A stretch of 41,040 nucleotides of DNA from Escherichia phage HeidiAbel_Bas97. The position numbers and the translations under genes are program-made. The stretch lies in the sequence record PQ850606.1. The stretch is one strand, 5' to 3'. Under the pieces are notes generated by a model, which was not told the origin of the DNA, ran no database searches, and was given only the letters and a program-made list of their open reading frames with translations. This document shows, one piece after another, positions 16,422 to 41,040 of the stretch (positions are counted from its first letter, which is position 1; the number at the start of each line of letters is the position of its first letter).

Positions 16422-18779
16422 ATGGCAAATAAGAAACTAAACGCAACAATTACCATCGGCGGTGCCGTATCGAGTAGCCTTAAGGGCGCATTCGGCACCG
16501 TCAAATCATCTGTGGAACAGGTTGGCGCAGCAATGGCCAAACTGGAACGCGAGCAACGCACACTAACCAACGCCATCCAGACGTTTGGCCGCCAGGGCAA
16601 AAACGTTGATTCACTGCGCGCCAAATACGCCGCCAACGTTGCTGCGGTGGACAAACTGCGCACCGCCACCGAACGCCTGAAACGCGTGGAGGATGCCCGC
16701 GAACGCAACCTGGCGAAGCGTGAACAATACAAAGATGGCATCATGGGCACCATTGCCCTGGGTGCCACTATCGCCGCGCCAATCAAAGCCGCGATGGATT
16801 TTGAAAGCACCGTTGCCGACATCAAAAAGGTGGTGGACGCGCCGAAGGGTGCCGACGAAGATACTTTCTTCAAAGCCATCAGCAAACAGGTTTTGGATAT
16901 GTCCAAAACTCTGCCGATGACCGCCAACGAGATTGGCCGCATCTTCGCGCTTGGCGGCCAGTCTGGCATTGCCACCGAAGATTTGGGCAAGTTCACGGAA
17001 TCCGCAGTCAAAATGGGCGTGGCGTTTGATGTCAGCGCGGAACAGGCTGGCCAGTCAATGGCGGAACTGCGTTCTGCATTCGGCATGACGCAAGACCAGG
17101 TGAACACCCTGGCCGACCAGATGAACTACCTGGACAACAACGGCAGCGCCGCCGCCAAAGACATCATGGAAATTGTCCAGCGCATCGGGCCGCTGGCCAA
17201 AGTGGCTGGCGTTTCTGCTGGCCAGGTGGCCGCCCTGGGTTCAACGCTGCGCGGCATGGGTGTGCAAAACGAAATTGCCGCCACCGGCATCAAAAACCTG
17301 TTCCTGACCCTGGCATCCGGTGACGCTGCGACGAAGAAACAAAAGGAAGTGTTTAAACAGCTTGGCTACACGTCAAAAGAAGTGTCCAAGTCAATGCAGC
17401 TTGACGCAGAAAAGACCATGACGGTCATTCTGAAACAGATTTCCAAACTGCCGAAGCACGCACAGGCGGCAGCACTTACGGAACTGTTTGGCAAAGAGGT
17501 GGTGGGCAGTATCGCGCCGCTGATGACGCGGCTTGGCGAGTTGCAGAAAAACTTTGATGCCGTGGCCGACCGGACGAAATACGCCGGTTCCATGCAGAAA
17601 GAATTTGAAGCGCGCGCGGCCACCACTGCAAACCAGCTTATTTTGTTCCGCAACCAGATCACCGGCCTGGGCGTCACGATTGGTTCAGTCCTTCTGCCTG
17701 CGGTCAACAGCGTCCTGCAAACCGTTGGGCCGTGGATTGGCAAAATCACTGAACTGGCTGACGCGCACCCGGTTGTCACCAAAGCCATTGTGGCCACGGC
17801 TGGCGCACTGATTACCATGCGCATTGCCACGTTTGCTGCTGGCTTCGCTTTCACGTACCTGCGCGGCGGTGCGCTGCGTGTTGTGGGTGCCCTGGCTGGT
17901 GCCCGCGCACAGATGGCACTGACGGCGGTTTCCGCGCGTGCAGTGGGTGCCGCAGCTACCGTGGCCAACGGCGGCCTGGTGGGCATGGCATCGCGTGGAA
18001 TCCCTGCCGTTGTCACTGGCGTGCGCGCCATTGGTGCGGCGTTCATTTCCACCGGCATTGGTGCCCTGATTACCGGCCTGGCGCTTGGCGGCCTGTGGAT
18101 TTACCGCAATTGGGCTGGCGTCAAAGCGTTCATGACCGGCACGTTGCAGGGCATCCAGCAAGGGTTGCAGCCTGTAACGGAGAAATTCCAGGCGCTGTGG
18201 GATAGGTTAGGACCAGTAAAAACCGCATTCCAGTGGGTTGCTGACGCTGCTGGCAAGGCGTGGGATTGGTTCACCAAACTGGCCGAACCTGTGAGCTACA
18301 GCGGCGAAGAACTGAAAAAGGCCGGTGACGCTGGCCAGCAGTTCGGCAAGGCGCTGGCGGCAGGCATTGATTATGTTTTGGGGCCAATTCAGTTCCTGAT
18401 TGATAAGATCATTTGGGTTTCTGACAACATTGGCGCACTGACGCAAAAAGCCGTTGAGTTCAAAAACAGCGTTTCTGACATGGCTGGTGGTGCCTGGCAG
18501 AAAACGAAAGACTTTTTCAGCAACCCGTTTGGCAGTGATGACGTGCCAGAAGGCAACACGCTGGCCACACCGTTGACACCGAACAACGCATTGCCAGCGC
18601 CTGCCCTGGCGAACCGTGGCGGCAGTACATACACCGACAGCAGCACCACCACCATTCAGGTGACGCAGCGCCCTGGTGAGAACAACGCCGACCTGGCCAA
18701 ACGTATTGCCGACGAACAGGAGCGCCGCCGCCAGGTGCGCCAGCGCAGCATGATGAATGATGGAGTGACGGCACCATGA
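16422..18779 (+). CDS. T: Tail tape measure protein
   Basis: 785 aa, Ala/Gly-rich with coiled-coil and hydrophobic segments; follows E/E'. Confidence 0.9.
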   Translation: MANKKLNATITIGGAVSSSLKGAFGTVKSSVEQVGAAMAKLEREQRTLTNAIQTFGRQGKNVDSLRAKYAANVAAVDKLRTATERLKRVEDARERNLAKREQYKDGIMGTIALGATIAAPIKAAMDFESTVADIKKVVDAPKGADEDTFFKAISKQVLDMSKTLPMTANEIGRIFALGGQSGIATEDLGKFTESAVKMGVAFDVSAEQAGQSMAELRSAFGMTQDQVNTLADQMNYLDNNGSAAAKDIMEIVQRIGPLAKVAGVSAGQVAALGSTLRGMGVQNEIAATGIKNLFLTLASGDAATKKQKEVFKQLGYTSKEVSKSMQLDAEKTMTVILKQISKLPKHAQAAALTELFGKEVVGSIAPLMTRLGELQKNFDAVADRTKYAGSMQKEFEARAATTANQLILFRNQITGLGVTIGSVLLPAVNSVLQTVGPWIGKITELADAHPVVTKAIVATAGALITMRIATFAAGFAFTYLRGGALRVVGALAGARAQMALTAVSARAVGAAATVANGGLVGMASRGIPAVVTGVRAIGAAFISTGIGALITGLALGGLWIYRNWAGVKAFMTGTLQGIQQGLQPVTEKFQALWDRLGPVKTAFQWVADAAGKAWDWFTKLAEPVSYSGEELKKAGDAGQQFGKALAAGIDYVLGPIQFLIDKIIWVSDNIGALTQKAVEFKNSVSDMAGGAWQKTKDFFSNPFGSDDVPEGNTLATPLTPNNALPAPALANRGGSTYTDSSTTTIQVTQRPGENNADLAKRIADEQERRRQVRQRSMMNDGVTAP

Positions 18780-22818: not shown

Positions 22819-22895
22819 TGGCGACCCCTACAGGAATCGAACCTGTAACCTACAGCTTAGAAGGCTGTCGCTCTATCCGGTTGAGCTAAGGGGCC
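22819..22895 (-). tRNA. tRNA-Arg (anticodon UCU), 77 nt with encoded CCA
   Basis: Reverse complement folds by hand into a full cloverleaf: 7-bp acceptor stem with one G-U pair, D arm, anticodon loop CUUCUAA, T-loop TTCGATT, discriminator G and CCA. Confidence 0.85.
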
Positions 22896-26150: not shown

Positions 26151-26577
26151 TGTGCACCCCGAATTCACCAGGTGCAGCCGTGCACTTTTCGTGGTGGTAA
26201 CCATCCTGGAAACCGCAAACAGGGCAGCAATCGTGCGGCTGTTCGTTGTCATTACCAGCTACCGGCTGGCGGTGACGTTCCAGCCAGATAACCGCGCCAG
26301 ACAGGTAGACGATTGCGCCCAACAGTTCGCGCACTGCGGCGTCAACCTGGCCACGGTTGGCCATGCCCTGCGCTTCTTCGGATTTCTTATCCGCCTGACC
26401 CAAAATGAAGCCAACTCCACGGCGGTCACCAATGGTCTGCATAGGCTGCTGGTGGAATGGCTTGTCATCAGCGTGACGTTCCGCGCCTTTTCCGGTGGCG
26501 GCCTGGTCAAAGGCGCGTTCCAGTACATCAGCCAGACGTTCATAACCACTAACATTCTTCATTGTCGTTTGCCCCAA
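26143..26577 (-). CDS. Conserved hypothetical phage protein (start may be 26562)
   Basis: 144-aa ORF in the early-left operon; C-terminal Cys/His cluster (HDCCPVCG...HHEKC). Confidence 0.45.
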   Translation of the reverse strand: MGQTTMKNVSGYERLADVLERAFDQAATGKGAERHADDKPFHQQPMQTIGDRRGVGFILGQADKKSEEAQGMANRGQVDAAVRELLGAIVYLSGAVIWLERHRQPVAGNDNEQPHDCCPVCGFQDGYHHEKCTAAPGEFGVHNG

Positions 26578-26770
26578 TCATGTGTTTTGCTTCATACGCT
26601 TCCACGCTGGTGATGGAGTAGCGAACGCGTGAGCCAAATTTTGTATAGGCTGGCCCTTTGCCTTTGTTGCGCCAGTTCGCCAGGGTTCCGGTGGTAACTG
26701 CGCCGTTCCAGCGCAGAACCAGTTCCTGTGGCGTCAGATACGTGCTTTGTTTCTGTGCCGGTTGTGCCAT
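26549..26770 (-). CDS. Excisionase / AlpA-like HTH DNA-binding protein
   Basis: LTPQELVLRWNGAVTTGTLANWRNKGKGPAYTKFGSRVRYSITSVEAY matches the Xis/AlpA-type winged-helix pattern. Confidence 0.6.
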   Translation of the reverse strand: MAQPAQKQSTYLTPQELVLRWNGAVTTGTLANWRNKGKGPAYTKFGSRVRYSITSVEAYEAKHMIGANDNEEC

Positions 26771-26783
26771 TTTTTACCCTTTC

Positions 26784-27773
26784 TTACTGTGCGCCGGTGC
26801 CCATCACCTGGCTGTTTAAATCATCAACGTCCTGCGCATCGCCGTTGGCGTTGGCGCGCTGTTCGTCATATGCGCGGGCGGCTTGCAACAATGATTGTTT
26901 GAATTCATCGCCCAGCTTTTTGCGAATTGCTGGTGGTGTTTTGTCCCAGCATTCCTGCGTGTACTGCTCACCCTGTTCTGTAACGCCGCGCAGCTTGTTG
27001 CGGTAGGCTTCCACCTTCGGATCTAACTTGTTGCCACCCTGAACCCACTGACGCAGCGCCAAACCGTCCTGTGCACTGATGTAGCCAGTTTCACGCCCTA
27101 AGATGCCGCGCAACTCTTCCGGGCACTTCATGACCTGCTGCGCGCTGCCAGAATCCCACATCATCAGGCTGGCGGTCATTTCAAACATCACGTTCTTTTC
27201 CGTCACCGGCATGATGCCTTGCGGTTCATATTCCGTTTTACCGTTGACCTTCACCAGTTTCACTTTTTCACGTGCGCGGATGCAGCAGATGATGTGCATG
27301 TTGGATTGCAACAACGCGTTCATGAAGCGTTTGTGTTCAGCCTTCGCACGGTTCCACTGTGGCTTCATCGGGTTGGCCAGGGTGGCGATTTCTTCGCAGC
27401 CGCCTGTTCCTTCCCATTCGTGGCTGATGGAGTCGATCACCAGCACTTCAACGCCTGCCTGTTCAAATTCGCGGATGGCGTCAATGTATCGCTGCGGGCT
27501 GAAAGGCGGTTCTAAATCACCAATCCAAAACGCGTCCGGGCGTTCTTTCAGTCCAAGTGATTCCTGGATTTTGTCATAAGTGTCATCGCTGGCATACAGT
27601 GAGCCACGGCGGTTTTCAGTATCGAGAAACCCAACCTTTGTGCCGTCACCGTTGGCCAGGCCATATGCCAGCATAAGTGCTGACAGGGTTTTGCCACTGC
27701 CGCTGATACCTGCCAGGCCGATGACCAGGCGCGCGCCTTCACGTTCTGCTTTACGAATATTAATTACTGCCAT
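26784..27773 (-). CDS. Sak4-like RecA-fold ATPase (single-strand annealing / recombination)
   Basis: Walker A GISGSGKT near the N-terminus; ~330 aa; sits between an exonuclease and SSB. Confidence 0.6.
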   Translation of the reverse strand: MAVINIRKAEREGARLVIGLAGISGSGKTLSALMLAYGLANGDGTKVGFLDTENRRGSLYASDDTYDKIQESLGLKERPDAFWIGDLEPPFSPQRYIDAIREFEQAGVEVLVIDSISHEWEGTGGCEEIATLANPMKPQWNRAKAEHKRFMNALLQSNMHIICCIRAREKVKLVKVNGKTEYEPQGIMPVTEKNVMFEMTASLMMWDSGSAQQVMKCPEELRGILGRETGYISAQDGLALRQWVQGGNKLDPKVEAYRNKLRGVTEQGEQYTQECWDKTPPAIRKKLGDEFKQSLLQAARAYDEQRANANGDAQDVDDLNSQVMGTGAQ

Positions 27774-38832: not shown

Positions 38833-39267
38833 ATGGAATTACCGCGCACTGTGCAGGAAATAGCTGACGTTATTGGCCGTGAACGTGCGCTTTTTCTTAT
38901 CGGACAACTGCCAAAACTGTGGGTGCCATCGCAGCAGTACCACAAAGTCATCCTGTATGTACCAAAGCGGATTCGACCCAATGACCCGCTGGTGCAAATC
39001 CTGGGGTGGCAGGATGCCAGTAAGATGGTGCAGCACTTCGGGGGTGAAATGCTTCACCCTGCTAACTGTGAATACATTTACCGCCATTTCATTCACCGCA
39101 GCATTAAGCGGATGCACAGCGAAGGAATGGACGCAAAAGCCATTGCGGAACTGCTGGACGTGTCAGAACGCACCGTTAAGCGCCATTGCACTGACAAACC
39201 CCACAAAGACACATCACCTGCAAATGATAACACTCCGCAACGACTACTAACGGCTATGGGGCAATGA
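38833..39267 (+). CDS. Mor/C-family transcription activator (putative late-gene activator)
   Basis: C-terminal HTH (GMDAKAIAELLDVSERTVKRH) and upstream GGEMLHP segment resemble Mu Mor; sits just before the lysis cassette where lambdoid Q sits. Confidence 0.5.
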   Translation: MELPRTVQEIADVIGRERALFLIGQLPKLWVPSQQYHKVILYVPKRIRPNDPLVQILGWQDASKMVQHFGGEMLHPANCEYIYRHFIHRSIKRMHSEGMDAKAIAELLDVSERTVKRHCTDKPHKDTSPANDNTPQRLLTAMGQ

Positions 39268-39271
39268 CCAA

Positions 39272-39592
39272 ATGGAGTTCTTCCAGAAATTTCTAGATAA
39301 CATTGGGTGGGGCATCGCTGGCATAATGGGTTCGTTGGTTTCGCTCCCTTTCCACGATGACATCAAATCGGTGAAAGCGCGCATCTGGTTTGTGTGTACC
39401 GGTGCAATTTGCGCTTACTTCCTGACAGACCTGGTTTCTTTGTACTTCAAAATAGATCGCGGGCTGGCTGGTAGTGTTGGCTTTCTCCTGGGGGCGTTTG
39501 GCGGTTCGCTGCTTGCTGCTGTCATCCGGGCAATCAAAGCAGCAGACATCTGGCAACTCCTGAAAAACCGCTTCGGTGGGGGTAATGCATAA
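39272..39592 (+). CDS. Holin
   Basis: 106 aa with two or three hydrophobic segments and a charged C-terminus; first gene of the lysis cassette. Confidence 0.65.
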   Translation: MEFFQKFLDNIGWGIAGIMGSLVSLPFHDDIKSVKARIWFVCTGAICAYFLTDLVSLYFKIDRGLAGSVGFLLGAFGGSLLAAVIRAIKAADIWQLLKNRFGGGNA

Positions 39593-39870
39593 TGCTGTTA
39601 ACGGTCATCAATTTCATTTCCGTACTGGTTATATTCTGTTGGTCAACGTGGTGCGTACTTCACCACGGCGTGCGGGATGGCATTGTGGGAAAGATTCTAT
39701 TTTCCTGCGTGGCCATTTCCGCGCTGGCCGTAATTCTTCACGAGGTTCAGGGCGAGTATTTGACTCGCTCAACGGTGACATTGCACGCCACCATTGCTGC
39801 CGTGGCTGTCAGACATTTCTTTGTGAACACCGTCTGGAAGCCTTTTTTTTCAAAATATTTTCATGAGTGA
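39592..39870 (+). CDS. Second small membrane protein of the lysis cassette (holin/antiholin-like)
   Basis: 92 aa, two hydrophobic helices, TAATG overlap with the holin gene. Confidence 0.45.
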   Translation: MLLTVINFISVLVIFCWSTWCVLHHGVRDGIVGKILFSCVAISALAVILHEVQGEYLTRSTVTLHATIAAVAVRHFFVNTVWKPFFSKYFHE

Positions 39871-39878
39871 GGATTGAT

Positions 39879-40358
39879 ATGAAAATTTCATCCAACGGGA
39901 TTGCTGTTCTCAAATACTTTGAGGATTGCCACCTTAAGGCATATCCAGACCCTGCCACCGGTGGTGCGCCGTGGACGATTGGATGGGGCCACACAGGGCC
40001 AGAAGTAAAACGCGGCCTGGTGTGGACACAAAAGCAGGCTGATGATGCGCTGGTGTCCGACCTGGCACGATTTGAAAGCGCAGTGAGTGCCGCCGTTCGT
40101 GTTCCGCTGAACCAGGGCCAGTTTGATGCGCTGGTTTCGTTCACTTACAACCTGGGTGAAGGCAATCTGAAATCCAGCACGCTGCTGAAAATGGTCAACG
40201 CTGGCAACTTTGCCGGTGCCGCTGAACAGTTCAAACGCTGGAACAAGGCGAACGGCAAGACGATGCGCGGCCTGACCCGACGCCGTGCCGCTGAACAATG
40301 CTTGTTCCTGGGCATGGGTGGTGCGTCAGCTATTGAACGCGGCGTGGCAGCAGCATGA
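39879..40358 (+). CDS. Phage lysozyme (glycoside hydrolase family 24, T4 lysozyme-like)
   Basis: GH24-like E...D...T pattern (LKYFEDCHLKAYPDPATGGAPWTIGWGHT); ATG 39879 with GAGGA RBS. Confidence 0.9.
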   Translation: MKISSNGIAVLKYFEDCHLKAYPDPATGGAPWTIGWGHTGPEVKRGLVWTQKQADDALVSDLARFESAVSAAVRVPLNQGQFDALVSFTYNLGEGNLKSSTLLKMVNAGNFAGAAEQFKRWNKANGKTMRGLTRRRAAEQCLFLGMGGASAIERGVAAA

Positions 40359-40876
40359 TGGATAAATACGCTACTCCTGTGAAACTCATTGTGGCGATAA
40401 TCATCGCCTTTGCGCTGGTAGCCTTTGGGTATGTATCAGGGTTCAGCAAATCAGATCGTGAGTGGCAGGCCAAATGGTCTGCCCGCGATGCTGCTGACGC
40501 ACAGGCACACCAGCAATTTACCGAACAACAACGCCGCATTGAACAAGAGCGGCAGGGGGCTATTGATGCAATTCAGGAACAAGCACAGCAGGACATTGCT
40601 ACAGCGCAGCGTAATGCTGCCATTGCTGCTGCTGAGTCTAAGCGCCTGCAAGACGGTATCGCAGACGCCATCACCAGACTACAGGCAGATAGCGGCAATC
40701 CCGGCGCTACCATCAGCAGCAAGACAAGGGCCAGCAACAGCAGCCTGCTTGCCGAGTTGTTCAGAGAGATTGACACAGCAGCGGGCATCTATGCATCAGA
40801 GGCTGACAGGGCAAGAGCCGCAGGGCTGACGTGTGAACGGGCTTACGACGCAGTGAGAGCGACATCACAACAATGA
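40355..40876 (+). CDS. Rz-like i-spanin
   Basis: N-terminal transmembrane helix then a long coiled-coil periplasmic domain; ATGA-coupled to the lysozyme gene. Confidence 0.7.
   Translation: MMDKYATPVKLIVAIIIAFALVAFGYVSGFSKSDREWQAKWSARDAADAQAHQQFTEQQRRIEQERQGAIDAIQEQAQQDIATAQRNAAIAAAESKRLQDGIADAITRLQADSGNPGATISSKTRASNSSLLAELFREIDTAAGIYASEADRARAAGLTCERAYDAVRATSQQ
40614..40829 (+). CDS. Rz1-like o-spanin (lipoprotein) embedded in the +1 frame of Rz
   Basis: MLPLLLLSLSAC lipobox (LSAC), Pro-rich mature part, entirely within the Rz gene. Confidence 0.55.
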   Translation: MLPLLLLSLSACKTVSQTPSPDYRQIAAIPALPSAARQGPATAACLPSCSERLTQQRASMHQRLTGQEPQG

Positions 40877-41040
40877 AAATATTTTCACGCACGACGCAAA
40901 TAATGCTTGACATCGACCGAAGTCGAAAAAGTCAAGGTACTTCCGGAGGGGGTACAGCCTGCGGGGGCATTGGTCCCGCGTAATTCGCGTTGTGCGTGGA
41001 TAATCAAAATCGATTTTACAATTACATTTAGGCGGATTGA

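Follow-up and report, generated by a model that had tools for sequence, protein, structure and literature searches.

In phage lambda, the o-spanin Rz1 is a lipoprotein encoded wholly within the gene of the type-II i-spanin Rz, in the +1 frame, after the genes of the holin and the endolysin; the lambda i-spanin is helical with a linker, and cysteines are found in the periplasmic parts (PMC5295617, PMC6139136). The lambda Rz1 precursor measures 60 aa, contains a PPPPP run and, according to Berry et al. as quoted in PMC6139136, has its sole Cys at position 29. Work on lambda and T4 provides the basis for lipidation, sorting, binding through the C-terminal parts, disulfide-linked dimers and membrane fusion by spanins (PMC6139136, PMC5295617). 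The T4 genes pseT.2/pseT.3 were used there in complementation of lambda RzamRz1am (PMC6139136). SpaninDataBase (Kongari et al. 2018, PMC6139136) also includes the coliphage vB_EcoM_ECO1230-10 (hereafter ECO1230-10), whose pair is entered as 'Emb', with the i-spanin at 26409-26907 and the o-spanin at 26429-26720 (96 aa, with a 69-aa periplasmic part). The database entry for its i-spanin has a helicity of 82.7% and one coiled coil (PMC6139136). The same paper, which uses a 40%/40% threshold for families, places the phages PPpW-3 and phiPSA1 in the 'Bcep176' spanin family and counts LNGC among the deviant o-spanin lipoboxes (PMC6139136); in the supplement, PPpW-3 appears as 'emb'.

We analyzed a stretch of 41,040 nucleotides, here called the window. 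Its last 1.8 kb were 92% identical at the nucleotide level to Escherichia phage vB_EcoM-ep3 (ep3) and, over partial length, 84-93% identical to the Jilinvirus (Iiscvirinae) myophages Alux-21, PT1, Arya, ECOO78 and ECO1230-10. Judged by its sequence, the source is a Jilinvirus-like coliphage. The window starts with a 525-nt ORF, equal in length to the annotated small-terminase gene (terS) of the relatives, and the 682-aa ORF that follows apparently encodes the large terminase. With putative terminase ORFs at its start and a lysis cassette at its end, the window looks like a whole phage genome that was opened at terS. It ends 164 nt past Rz. The resulting spacer between Rz and terS shows stronger conservation than the genes on either side and contains a 26-nt inverted repeat (RNA fold z = -6.0). 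This spacer had no match in Rfam, and it showed no covariation support because the available sequences are too similar. A 36-aa ORF in the spacer is broken by a 4-nt indel in Alux-21.

The lysis cassette runs holin-holin-endolysin-Rz (Table 1). Rz is its last gene and adjoins the endolysin, which is where a spanin gene is expected. The counterpart of the first cassette gene is annotated as a holin in ep3, Alux-21 and Arya. For the endolysin, the true start is likely the ATG at 39879 rather than the GTG at 39867, the predicted Shine-Dalgarno (SD) duplex being -8.5 kcal/mol at the former and +2.2 at the latter. The endolysin stop and the Rz start overlap in the sequence ATGA.

Table 1. Predicted features of the lysis region and of the nested spanin genes (positions in the window).
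Feature	Position	Strand	Basis or remark
Late transcriptional activator	38833-39267		phrog_836
Holin, 106 aa, lysis cassette gene 1	39272..39592	+	phrog_2359, E=1.3e-33
Second holin / antiholin-like membrane protein, 92 aa	39592..39870	+	phrog_2508, E=1.4e-28
Endolysin (phage lysozyme)	39867..40358	+	PF00959, E=6.6e-48; phrog_7
Rz i-spanin gene, 173 aa, ATG...TGA	40355..40876	+	PF10721, phrog_312
Rz N-terminal TMD, residues ~9-27, VKLIVAIIIAFALVAFGYV	40379..40435	+	Kyte-Doolittle; AF2 helix 6-29
Shine-Dalgarno-like AGGGGG, 6 nt 5' of the Rz1 ATG	40554..40559	+	anti-SD duplex
Rz1 o-spanin gene, +1 frame, 87-aa precursor plus stop	40566..40829	+	phrog_11621
Rz1 lipoprotein signal peptide, 27 aa	40566..40646	+	PROSITE PS51257-like rule
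Lipobox Cys28 codon, predicted acylated N-terminus of mature Rz1	40647..40649	+	invariant, 15/15
Rz1 C-L-P-S-C, periplasmic Cys pair, mature positions 34 and 38	40746..40760	+	invariant, 15/15
Only Cys of Rz, C160	40832..40834	+	near C-terminus, just 3' of Rz1 stop

The Rz protein matched PF10721 (DUF2514) over profile positions 5-160 of 161 (E=1.1e-27, 97.5 bits with the cut-off at 26), as well as the PHROG family phrog_312, described as 'Rz-like spanin' (E=5e-48, 8-171 of 173). Residues 9-27 form its sole hydrophobic segment, with a maximum of 2.61 in a 19-residue Kyte-Doolittle window. In a single-sequence AlphaFold2 (AF2) model, whose pLDDT averages 78 and rises to 96 in the central part, helices span residues 6-29, 32-112, 122-155 and 160-172, and residues 113-121 are unstructured. 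Rz thus combines the single TMD of a type-II protein with a helical periplasmic domain that includes a linker, and its modelled layout, an N-terminal membrane anchor followed by linker-separated helical periplasmic segments, is that of an i-spanin. The single cysteine C160 sits in a G-x-x-C-E motif that was conserved in all 15 Rz genes compared (see below).

Within this gene, the +1 frame provides an open stretch that covers 40425-40829; in the +2 frame, the longest such stretch is 31 codons. The earlier note had described an Rz1 ORF lying entirely inside the i-spanin gene in the +1 frame, with an LSAC lipobox and a Pro-rich mature peptide. Both the frame ((40566-40355) mod 3 = 1) and the full nesting hold: the ORF stops at 40829, 47 nt ahead of the Rz stop at 40876. 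The range 40355-40876 that had been assigned to Rz1 is correct for Rz, with Rz1 itself occupying 40566-40829. The Rz1 precursor consists of MQFRNKHSRTLLQRSVMLPLLLLSLSA, ending immediately before Cys28, and a 60-aa mature peptide of ~6 kDa. Around the lipobox, the +1-frame translation includes MLPLLLLSLSAC, and reading through to the stop gives MQFRNKHSRTLLQRSVMLPLLLLSLSACKTVSQTPSPDYRQIAAIPALPSAARQGPATAACLPSCSERLTQQRASMHQRLTGQEPQG. We assessed the lipoprotein signal with a self-coded rule modelled on PROSITE PS51257, which it passed: the Cys is at position 28, K/R occurs within the first seven residues, and positions -5 to -10 are uncharged. The predicted signal comprises the positively charged, K/R-rich n-region MQFRNKHSRTLLQRS, the 10-residue h-region VMLPLLLLSL and the lipobox LSAC (nt 40638-40649), with cleavage between A and C, so that the lipobox of the earlier description was borne out. 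Its Pro-rich mature peptide was so in part: 7 of the 60 residues are Pro (12%), a moderate content rather than a strong enrichment. Mature Rz1 has two further Cys, carries Lys at +2 and lacks the Lol-avoidance Asp; its C-terminus is polar (…RLTGQEPQG) and has no TMD. Disulfide-capable periplasmic cysteines are therefore present in both proteins, namely C160 of Rz and C34 and C38 of mature Rz1. The precursor also matched phrog_11621, again a 'Rz-like spanin' family (E=1e-16, 2-77 of 88).

Taken by their profile matches, the two proteins are a DUF2514/phrog_312 i-spanin and a phrog_11621 o-spanin. We are highly confident that 40355-40876 with the nested 40566-40829 is an embedded two-component spanin that provides the last function of the lysis cassette, as the earlier note had proposed. 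This reading draws on the TMD of Rz, the lipobox of Rz1, their place in the cassette, the phrog_11621 match, the 'Emb' entry of ECO1230-10 and the constraint on both reading frames described below.

We placed the start of Rz1 at ATG 40566 because of its stronger SD, the rules for signal peptides, the starts in homologues and the entry in SpaninDataBase. The anti-SD duplex at this ATG is -9.4 kcal/mol, which ranks in the top 1% among the 667 plus-strand ATGs of the window. A real Rz1 could instead start at the internal ATG 40614, as the earlier description had implied, giving a 71-aa precursor with the 11-residue signal MLPLLLLSLSA before the Cys. This ATG is in frame and directly ahead of the hydrophobic core, a Met is found at the same position (-11) in most enterobacterial and Pseudomonas homologues, and the 71-aa form still matches the PHROG profile at 1.4e-14. 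However, its signal of 11 residues has no positive n-region and falls outside PS51257, which asks for Cys at 15-35 and K/R among the first seven residues, and the codon has no SD, with a duplex of +1.0 kcal/mol as opposed to the value at 40566. The homologues speak against it as well: position -11 is Leu in the phages Pappous and Taid, and the counterpart of ATG 40566 directly follows a stop codon in Arya and KA2-1. Moreover, the PHROG profile alignment begins at residue 9 of the long form, which scores above the short form. SpaninDataBase uses the upstream ATG for ECO1230-10, and its o-spanin coordinates and start codon for that phage are the same as those of the orthologue that we extracted. 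We consider a start at 40614 very improbable and retain ATG 40566.

The +1 ORF might also be a non-coding by-product of Rz, with LSAC arising fortuitously and Rz acting by itself or together with an o-spanin from another locus. Open reading alone does not argue strongly against this, since an Rz rich in GCN, CAG and CGN codons seldom yields stops in the +1 frame. When the codon order of Rz was shuffled, the longest +1 open stretch was 70 ± 22 codons and reached at least 135 codons in 1.4% of cases; when synonymous codons were shuffled and the Rz protein was kept, it was 109 ± 27 codons, with at least 87 codons in 74% and at least 135 in 24%. The length of the Rz1 ORF is thus weak evidence, the +1 frame of the Ala/Gln/Arg-rich Rz being naturally stop-poor. 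Also in keeping with a by-product, Rz1 matched no Pfam or NCBIfam model, and a search of a collection of 5.8 billion proteins returned no called homologue, although the latter is consistent with gene callers passing over fully embedded ORFs. The signal itself is much rarer than an open frame. A lipoprotein signal was counted as complete if it had an ATG, K/R among the first seven residues, a hydrophobic core, a lipobox of the PS51257 type whose Cys falls at 15-35, and a mature part of at least 25 aa. Such a signal appeared in only 0.19% (codon order) and 0.30% (synonymous codons) of the shuffles, and only five times when the 41 kb window was read in all six frames. The four other occurrences (+39014, -686, -17824 and -7030), which could be counted in favour of a fortuitous LSAC, lie in frames or on strands that differ from those of the long ORFs at their positions and were judged to be chance; one of them sits antisense inside a 785-aa ORF (16422-18779). 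The six-frame pattern scan of the window found no convincing second lipoprotein gene that could supply the o-spanin from elsewhere.

Conservation was decisive. By tblastn, Rz1 matched 39 phage records, in every annotated case beneath an Rz-type gene, from phages of Escherichia, Salmonella, Enterobacter, Klebsiella, Pectobacterium/Dickeya, Pantoea, Erwinia and Pseudomonas. For closer comparison we used 15 Rz genes, that of the window and 14 homologues, from phages of Escherichia, Salmonella, Enterobacter, Klebsiella, Pantoea, Pectobacterium and Pseudomonas. In all 15, the +1 frame was open for 81-151 codons, a lipobox stood at the homologous position and the ORF was fully embedded. The +2 frame was closed in 14 of them, the exception being the high-GC PPpW-3, where 88 codons are open at the 5' end of Rz. 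The lipobox varied (LSAC, LTGC, LLGC, LNGC, LAAC, LTAC, ATGC, LVGC and VTGC), with LNGC found in Pappous and Taid, while its Cys, the C-x-P-[ST]-C pair, a P-x-L motif and LT..R were invariant. The +2 residue was K, N, A or T and never D. A candidate Rz1 ATG lay at -21 to -27, and an SD-like purine-rich tract (GGGGG, AAGGTG, AAGGAGG and variants) preceded it in 14 of the 15, all except that of Pantoea phage MED16.

Because the conservation of Rz itself accounts for part of the similarity in the +1 frame, we examined variability separately for each codon position. Third positions in the non-overlapping flanks of Rz were 1.4-2.1 times as variable as first and second positions, whereas across the overlap with mature Rz1 this ratio dropped to 1.03-1.09 in all three taxon sets. 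Within the overlap, Rz position 1, which is the wobble position of Rz1, was the most variable. The wobble position of Rz is the second codon position of Rz1, and the loss of its excess variability specifically over the overlap indicates selection on both frames. An embedded ORF conserved at the same position in all 15 genes, as far as those of the Pseudomonas phages, with an invariant Cys and an SD-preceded ATG, rules out chance, and together with the o-spanin PHROG match it makes a non-coding +1 frame scarcely credible.

Among the known spanins, the pairs of ep3, Alux-21, PT1, Arya and ECO1230-10 are orthologous to the embedded pair of the window, with Rz1 proteins 88-95% identical to that of the window (94% for ECO1230-10). 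These Jilinvirus relatives share the start codon, the LSAC lipobox, the cysteines, the embedded architecture and the cassette order. The Rz1 of ECO1230-10 is nine codons longer, which gives a mature peptide of 69 aa. Three unrelated versions of the TMD module occur among these otherwise near-identical Rz genes: the window has the ep3 type, ECO1230-10 and KA2-1 have a second type, and Alux-21, PT1 and Arya a third.

More distantly, both Rz and Rz1 were detectably homologous to those of the 'Bcep176' family phages PPpW-3 and phiPSA1 and of MED16, with Rz1 identities of 41-53% over 55-70% of its length. Common to these pairs are a DUF2514 i-spanin, the embedded architecture and the motifs [IV]P-x-L, ARQ, C-x-P-[ST]-C and LT..R. 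The 'Bcep176' and MED16 Rz1 proteins differ from that of the window in being only 40-50% identical and in their shorter signal peptide (22 aa).

The architecture is also that of lambda, where a lipoprotein gene nested in the +1 frame likewise follows the holin and endolysin genes. Homology to the lambda proteins was nevertheless rejected. BLASTP against lambda was non-significant for Rz (E=4.8), and for Rz1 (E=0.012) the match was limited to the signal peptide. Neither protein of the window reached the gathering score of the lambda families PF03245 and PF06085 in Pfam, in which Rz matched PF10721 only; the lambda controls matched these two families at 2.6e-54 and 2.9e-20, respectively. The two Rz1 proteins differ in size and composition, the 60 aa of the window corresponding to the mature peptide (12% Pro, two Cys) and those of lambda to the whole precursor, and the lambda PPPPP run has no equivalent in the window. 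Sharing the architecture without sequence homology, the pair is an analogue of lambda Rz/Rz1 that belongs to the same functional class and lies outside the lambda sequence families. The names Rz and Rz1 given in the earlier note thus apply to function and not to lambda family membership.

A u-spanin carries both an N-terminal lipobox and a C-terminal TMD on one polypeptide. The T1 gp11-type u-spanin serves the same lysis step, disruption of the outer membrane, and also uses a lipobox. Unlike in T1 gp11, the TMD and the lipobox of the window are on separate polypeptides, at the N-terminus of Rz and in Rz1, respectively. A unimolecular spanin was rejected, since Rz, with its TMD at the N-terminus, lacks a lipobox and Rz1 lacks a TMD.

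How the embedded pair would act can be outlined from its predicted features. Rz would insert into the inner membrane through its single N-terminal TMD and extend a largely alpha-helical domain into the periplasm, in which a long helix is followed by a short linker and two C-terminal helices. Translation of Rz1 would be independent, starting at ATG 40566 with an SD of its own. By analogy with lambda and T4, export would be followed by lipidation at Cys28 and cleavage by signal peptidase II, and with Lys at +2 the Lol system would sort Rz1 to the outer membrane. On the same analogy, Rz and Rz1 are expected to bind each other across the periplasm through their C-terminal parts, and disulfides would likely form through C160 of Rz and the C-x3-C pair of Rz1. 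Once the holin releases the endolysin and the latter strips away the peptidoglycan mesh, the spanin complexes would be free to move and collapse. By the same analogy with lambda and T4, this collapse would bring about fusion of the inner with the outer membrane and let the progeny out. Phages with defective spanins normally leave spherical cells unlysed when millimolar Mg2+ is present.

Two further ideas, which we put forward jointly and regard as rather unlikely, concern activation and evolution. Activation may be a disulfide isomerization, in which the intramolecular C-x3-C bond gives way to intermolecular or heterotypic Rz-Rz1 bonds; this reading is closer to the T4 PseT.2 proposal than to the lambda scheme. 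In evolution, the periplasmic module that bears Rz1 appears to pass between phages separately from the TMD module of Rz.

The arrangement as such is an ordinary, textbook one, and a 94%-identical orthologue had already been catalogued in 2018. An Rz1 annotation is nonetheless absent from the GenBank/RefSeq records of ep3, Alux-21, Arya, KA2-1, ECO1230-10, PT1 and ECOO78. In the record of MED16, the homologous ORF is annotated as 'outer-membrane spanin protein Rz1'. Compared with complete genomes of E. coli, the Rz gene gave one partial prophage match, labelled only 'DUF2514 family protein', and a literature search pairing spanin with DUF2514 found no papers. With Rz1 omitted from these records, no called homologue in the protein collection and no Pfam or NCBIfam model, o-spanins of this kind are effectively invisible to standard pipelines. 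The practical value of the present analysis lies in annotation, namely in closing a recurrent Rz1 gap in Jilinvirus records: the alignment fixes the start codon, the lipobox and the conserved cysteines, which is enough to annotate Rz1 correctly.

A comparison of window positions 40355-40465 with the records of five relatives (L002, L003 (Enterobacter phage Arya), L004, L012 and L013) revealed that Jilinviruses carry three unrelated sequence types of the N-terminal TMD module of the i-spanin gene Rz, which lies there. The remainder of Rz, which bears the embedded o-spanin lipoprotein gene Rz1, shares at least 90% identity in the nearest relatives (ep3, Alux-21, PT1 and ECO1230-10), with lower values in Arya and KA2-1. 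The combination of three unrelated TMD types with a conserved Rz1-bearing remainder suggests recombination within the spanin gene, upstream of Rz1. We also searched Rz against 5,426 complete E. coli genomes and obtained a single match, in the YZLc4-1 chromosome, where a stretch labelled 'DUF2514 family protein' matches 58% of Rz at 90% identity. A prophage-like region of this strain thus carries the spanin module too, with this phage type otherwise absent from the E. coli chromosomes searched with Rz.

Features of the window and of related records
Feature	Location	Strand	Remark
Rz TMD module type			window and ep3
Rz TMD module type			Alux-21, PT1 and Arya
Rz TMD module type			KA2-1 and ECO1230-10
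Match to Rz in E. coli YZLc4-1	NZ_CP123260.1 1319326-1319626
Rz homologue of Escherichia phage vB_EcoM_ECOO78	L014 832-1376		two annotated ORFs: 832-993 and 990-1376
Arya gp34, 41-aa 'hypothetical protein'	L003 1775-1900		annotated across endolysin/Rz junction
36-aa ORF	window 40873-40983	+	overlaps Rz stop (ATGA)
Intergenic stretch	window 40877-41040		Rz stop to window end; terS begins at window 1
Inverted repeat, 26 nt	window 40886-40911 / 40973-40998		arms, within intergenic stretch
Endolysin start region	window 39867-39881		GTG 39867 vs ATG 39879
tRNA gene	window 22822-22895	-	Rfam RF00005, 70 bits; middle of phage genome
Other ATG and lipobox patterns (n=4)	window +39014, -686, -7030, -17824		PS51257-like scan

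Annotation of this region varies among the relatives. In the ECOO78 record, the tblastn match to Rz1 is split into two pieces, and the divided Rz homologue is explained by a frameshift or by a sequencing error in that record. The conserved embedded Rz1 is unannotated in the Arya record, although gp34 is annotated there. Public records also differ in the endolysin start. In the window, the mechanical ORF begins at the GTG, which is without an SD (+2.2 kcal/mol), whereas the ATG has a GAGGA SD (-8.5 kcal/mol) and agrees with the ep3 annotation. At the Rz stop, the 36-aa ORF is probably non-coding; its counterpart in the Alux-21 record is labelled as a hypothetical protein, and a 4-nt indel in that phage shifts the frame relative to the other phages.

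Across Jilinviruses, the stretch between Rz and terS shows stronger conservation than the genes on either side; it contains an inverted repeat. Its predicted RNA fold is a three-way junction (-57.3 kcal/mol, z = -6.0 vs shuffles). It matched no Rfam family, and its fold showed no compensatory changes among the Jilinvirus sequences compared, since these are too alike. The stretch may act as a pac/cos-proximal element, as a terminator or regulatory RNA, or as a late-activator site.

The four other lipobox patterns, found by scanning all six frames, differ in frame or strand from the long ORFs at their positions (one, for instance, is antisense inside the 785-aa ORF at 16422-18779). These matches probably arose by chance, and they calibrate the background rate of the ATG and lipobox pattern.
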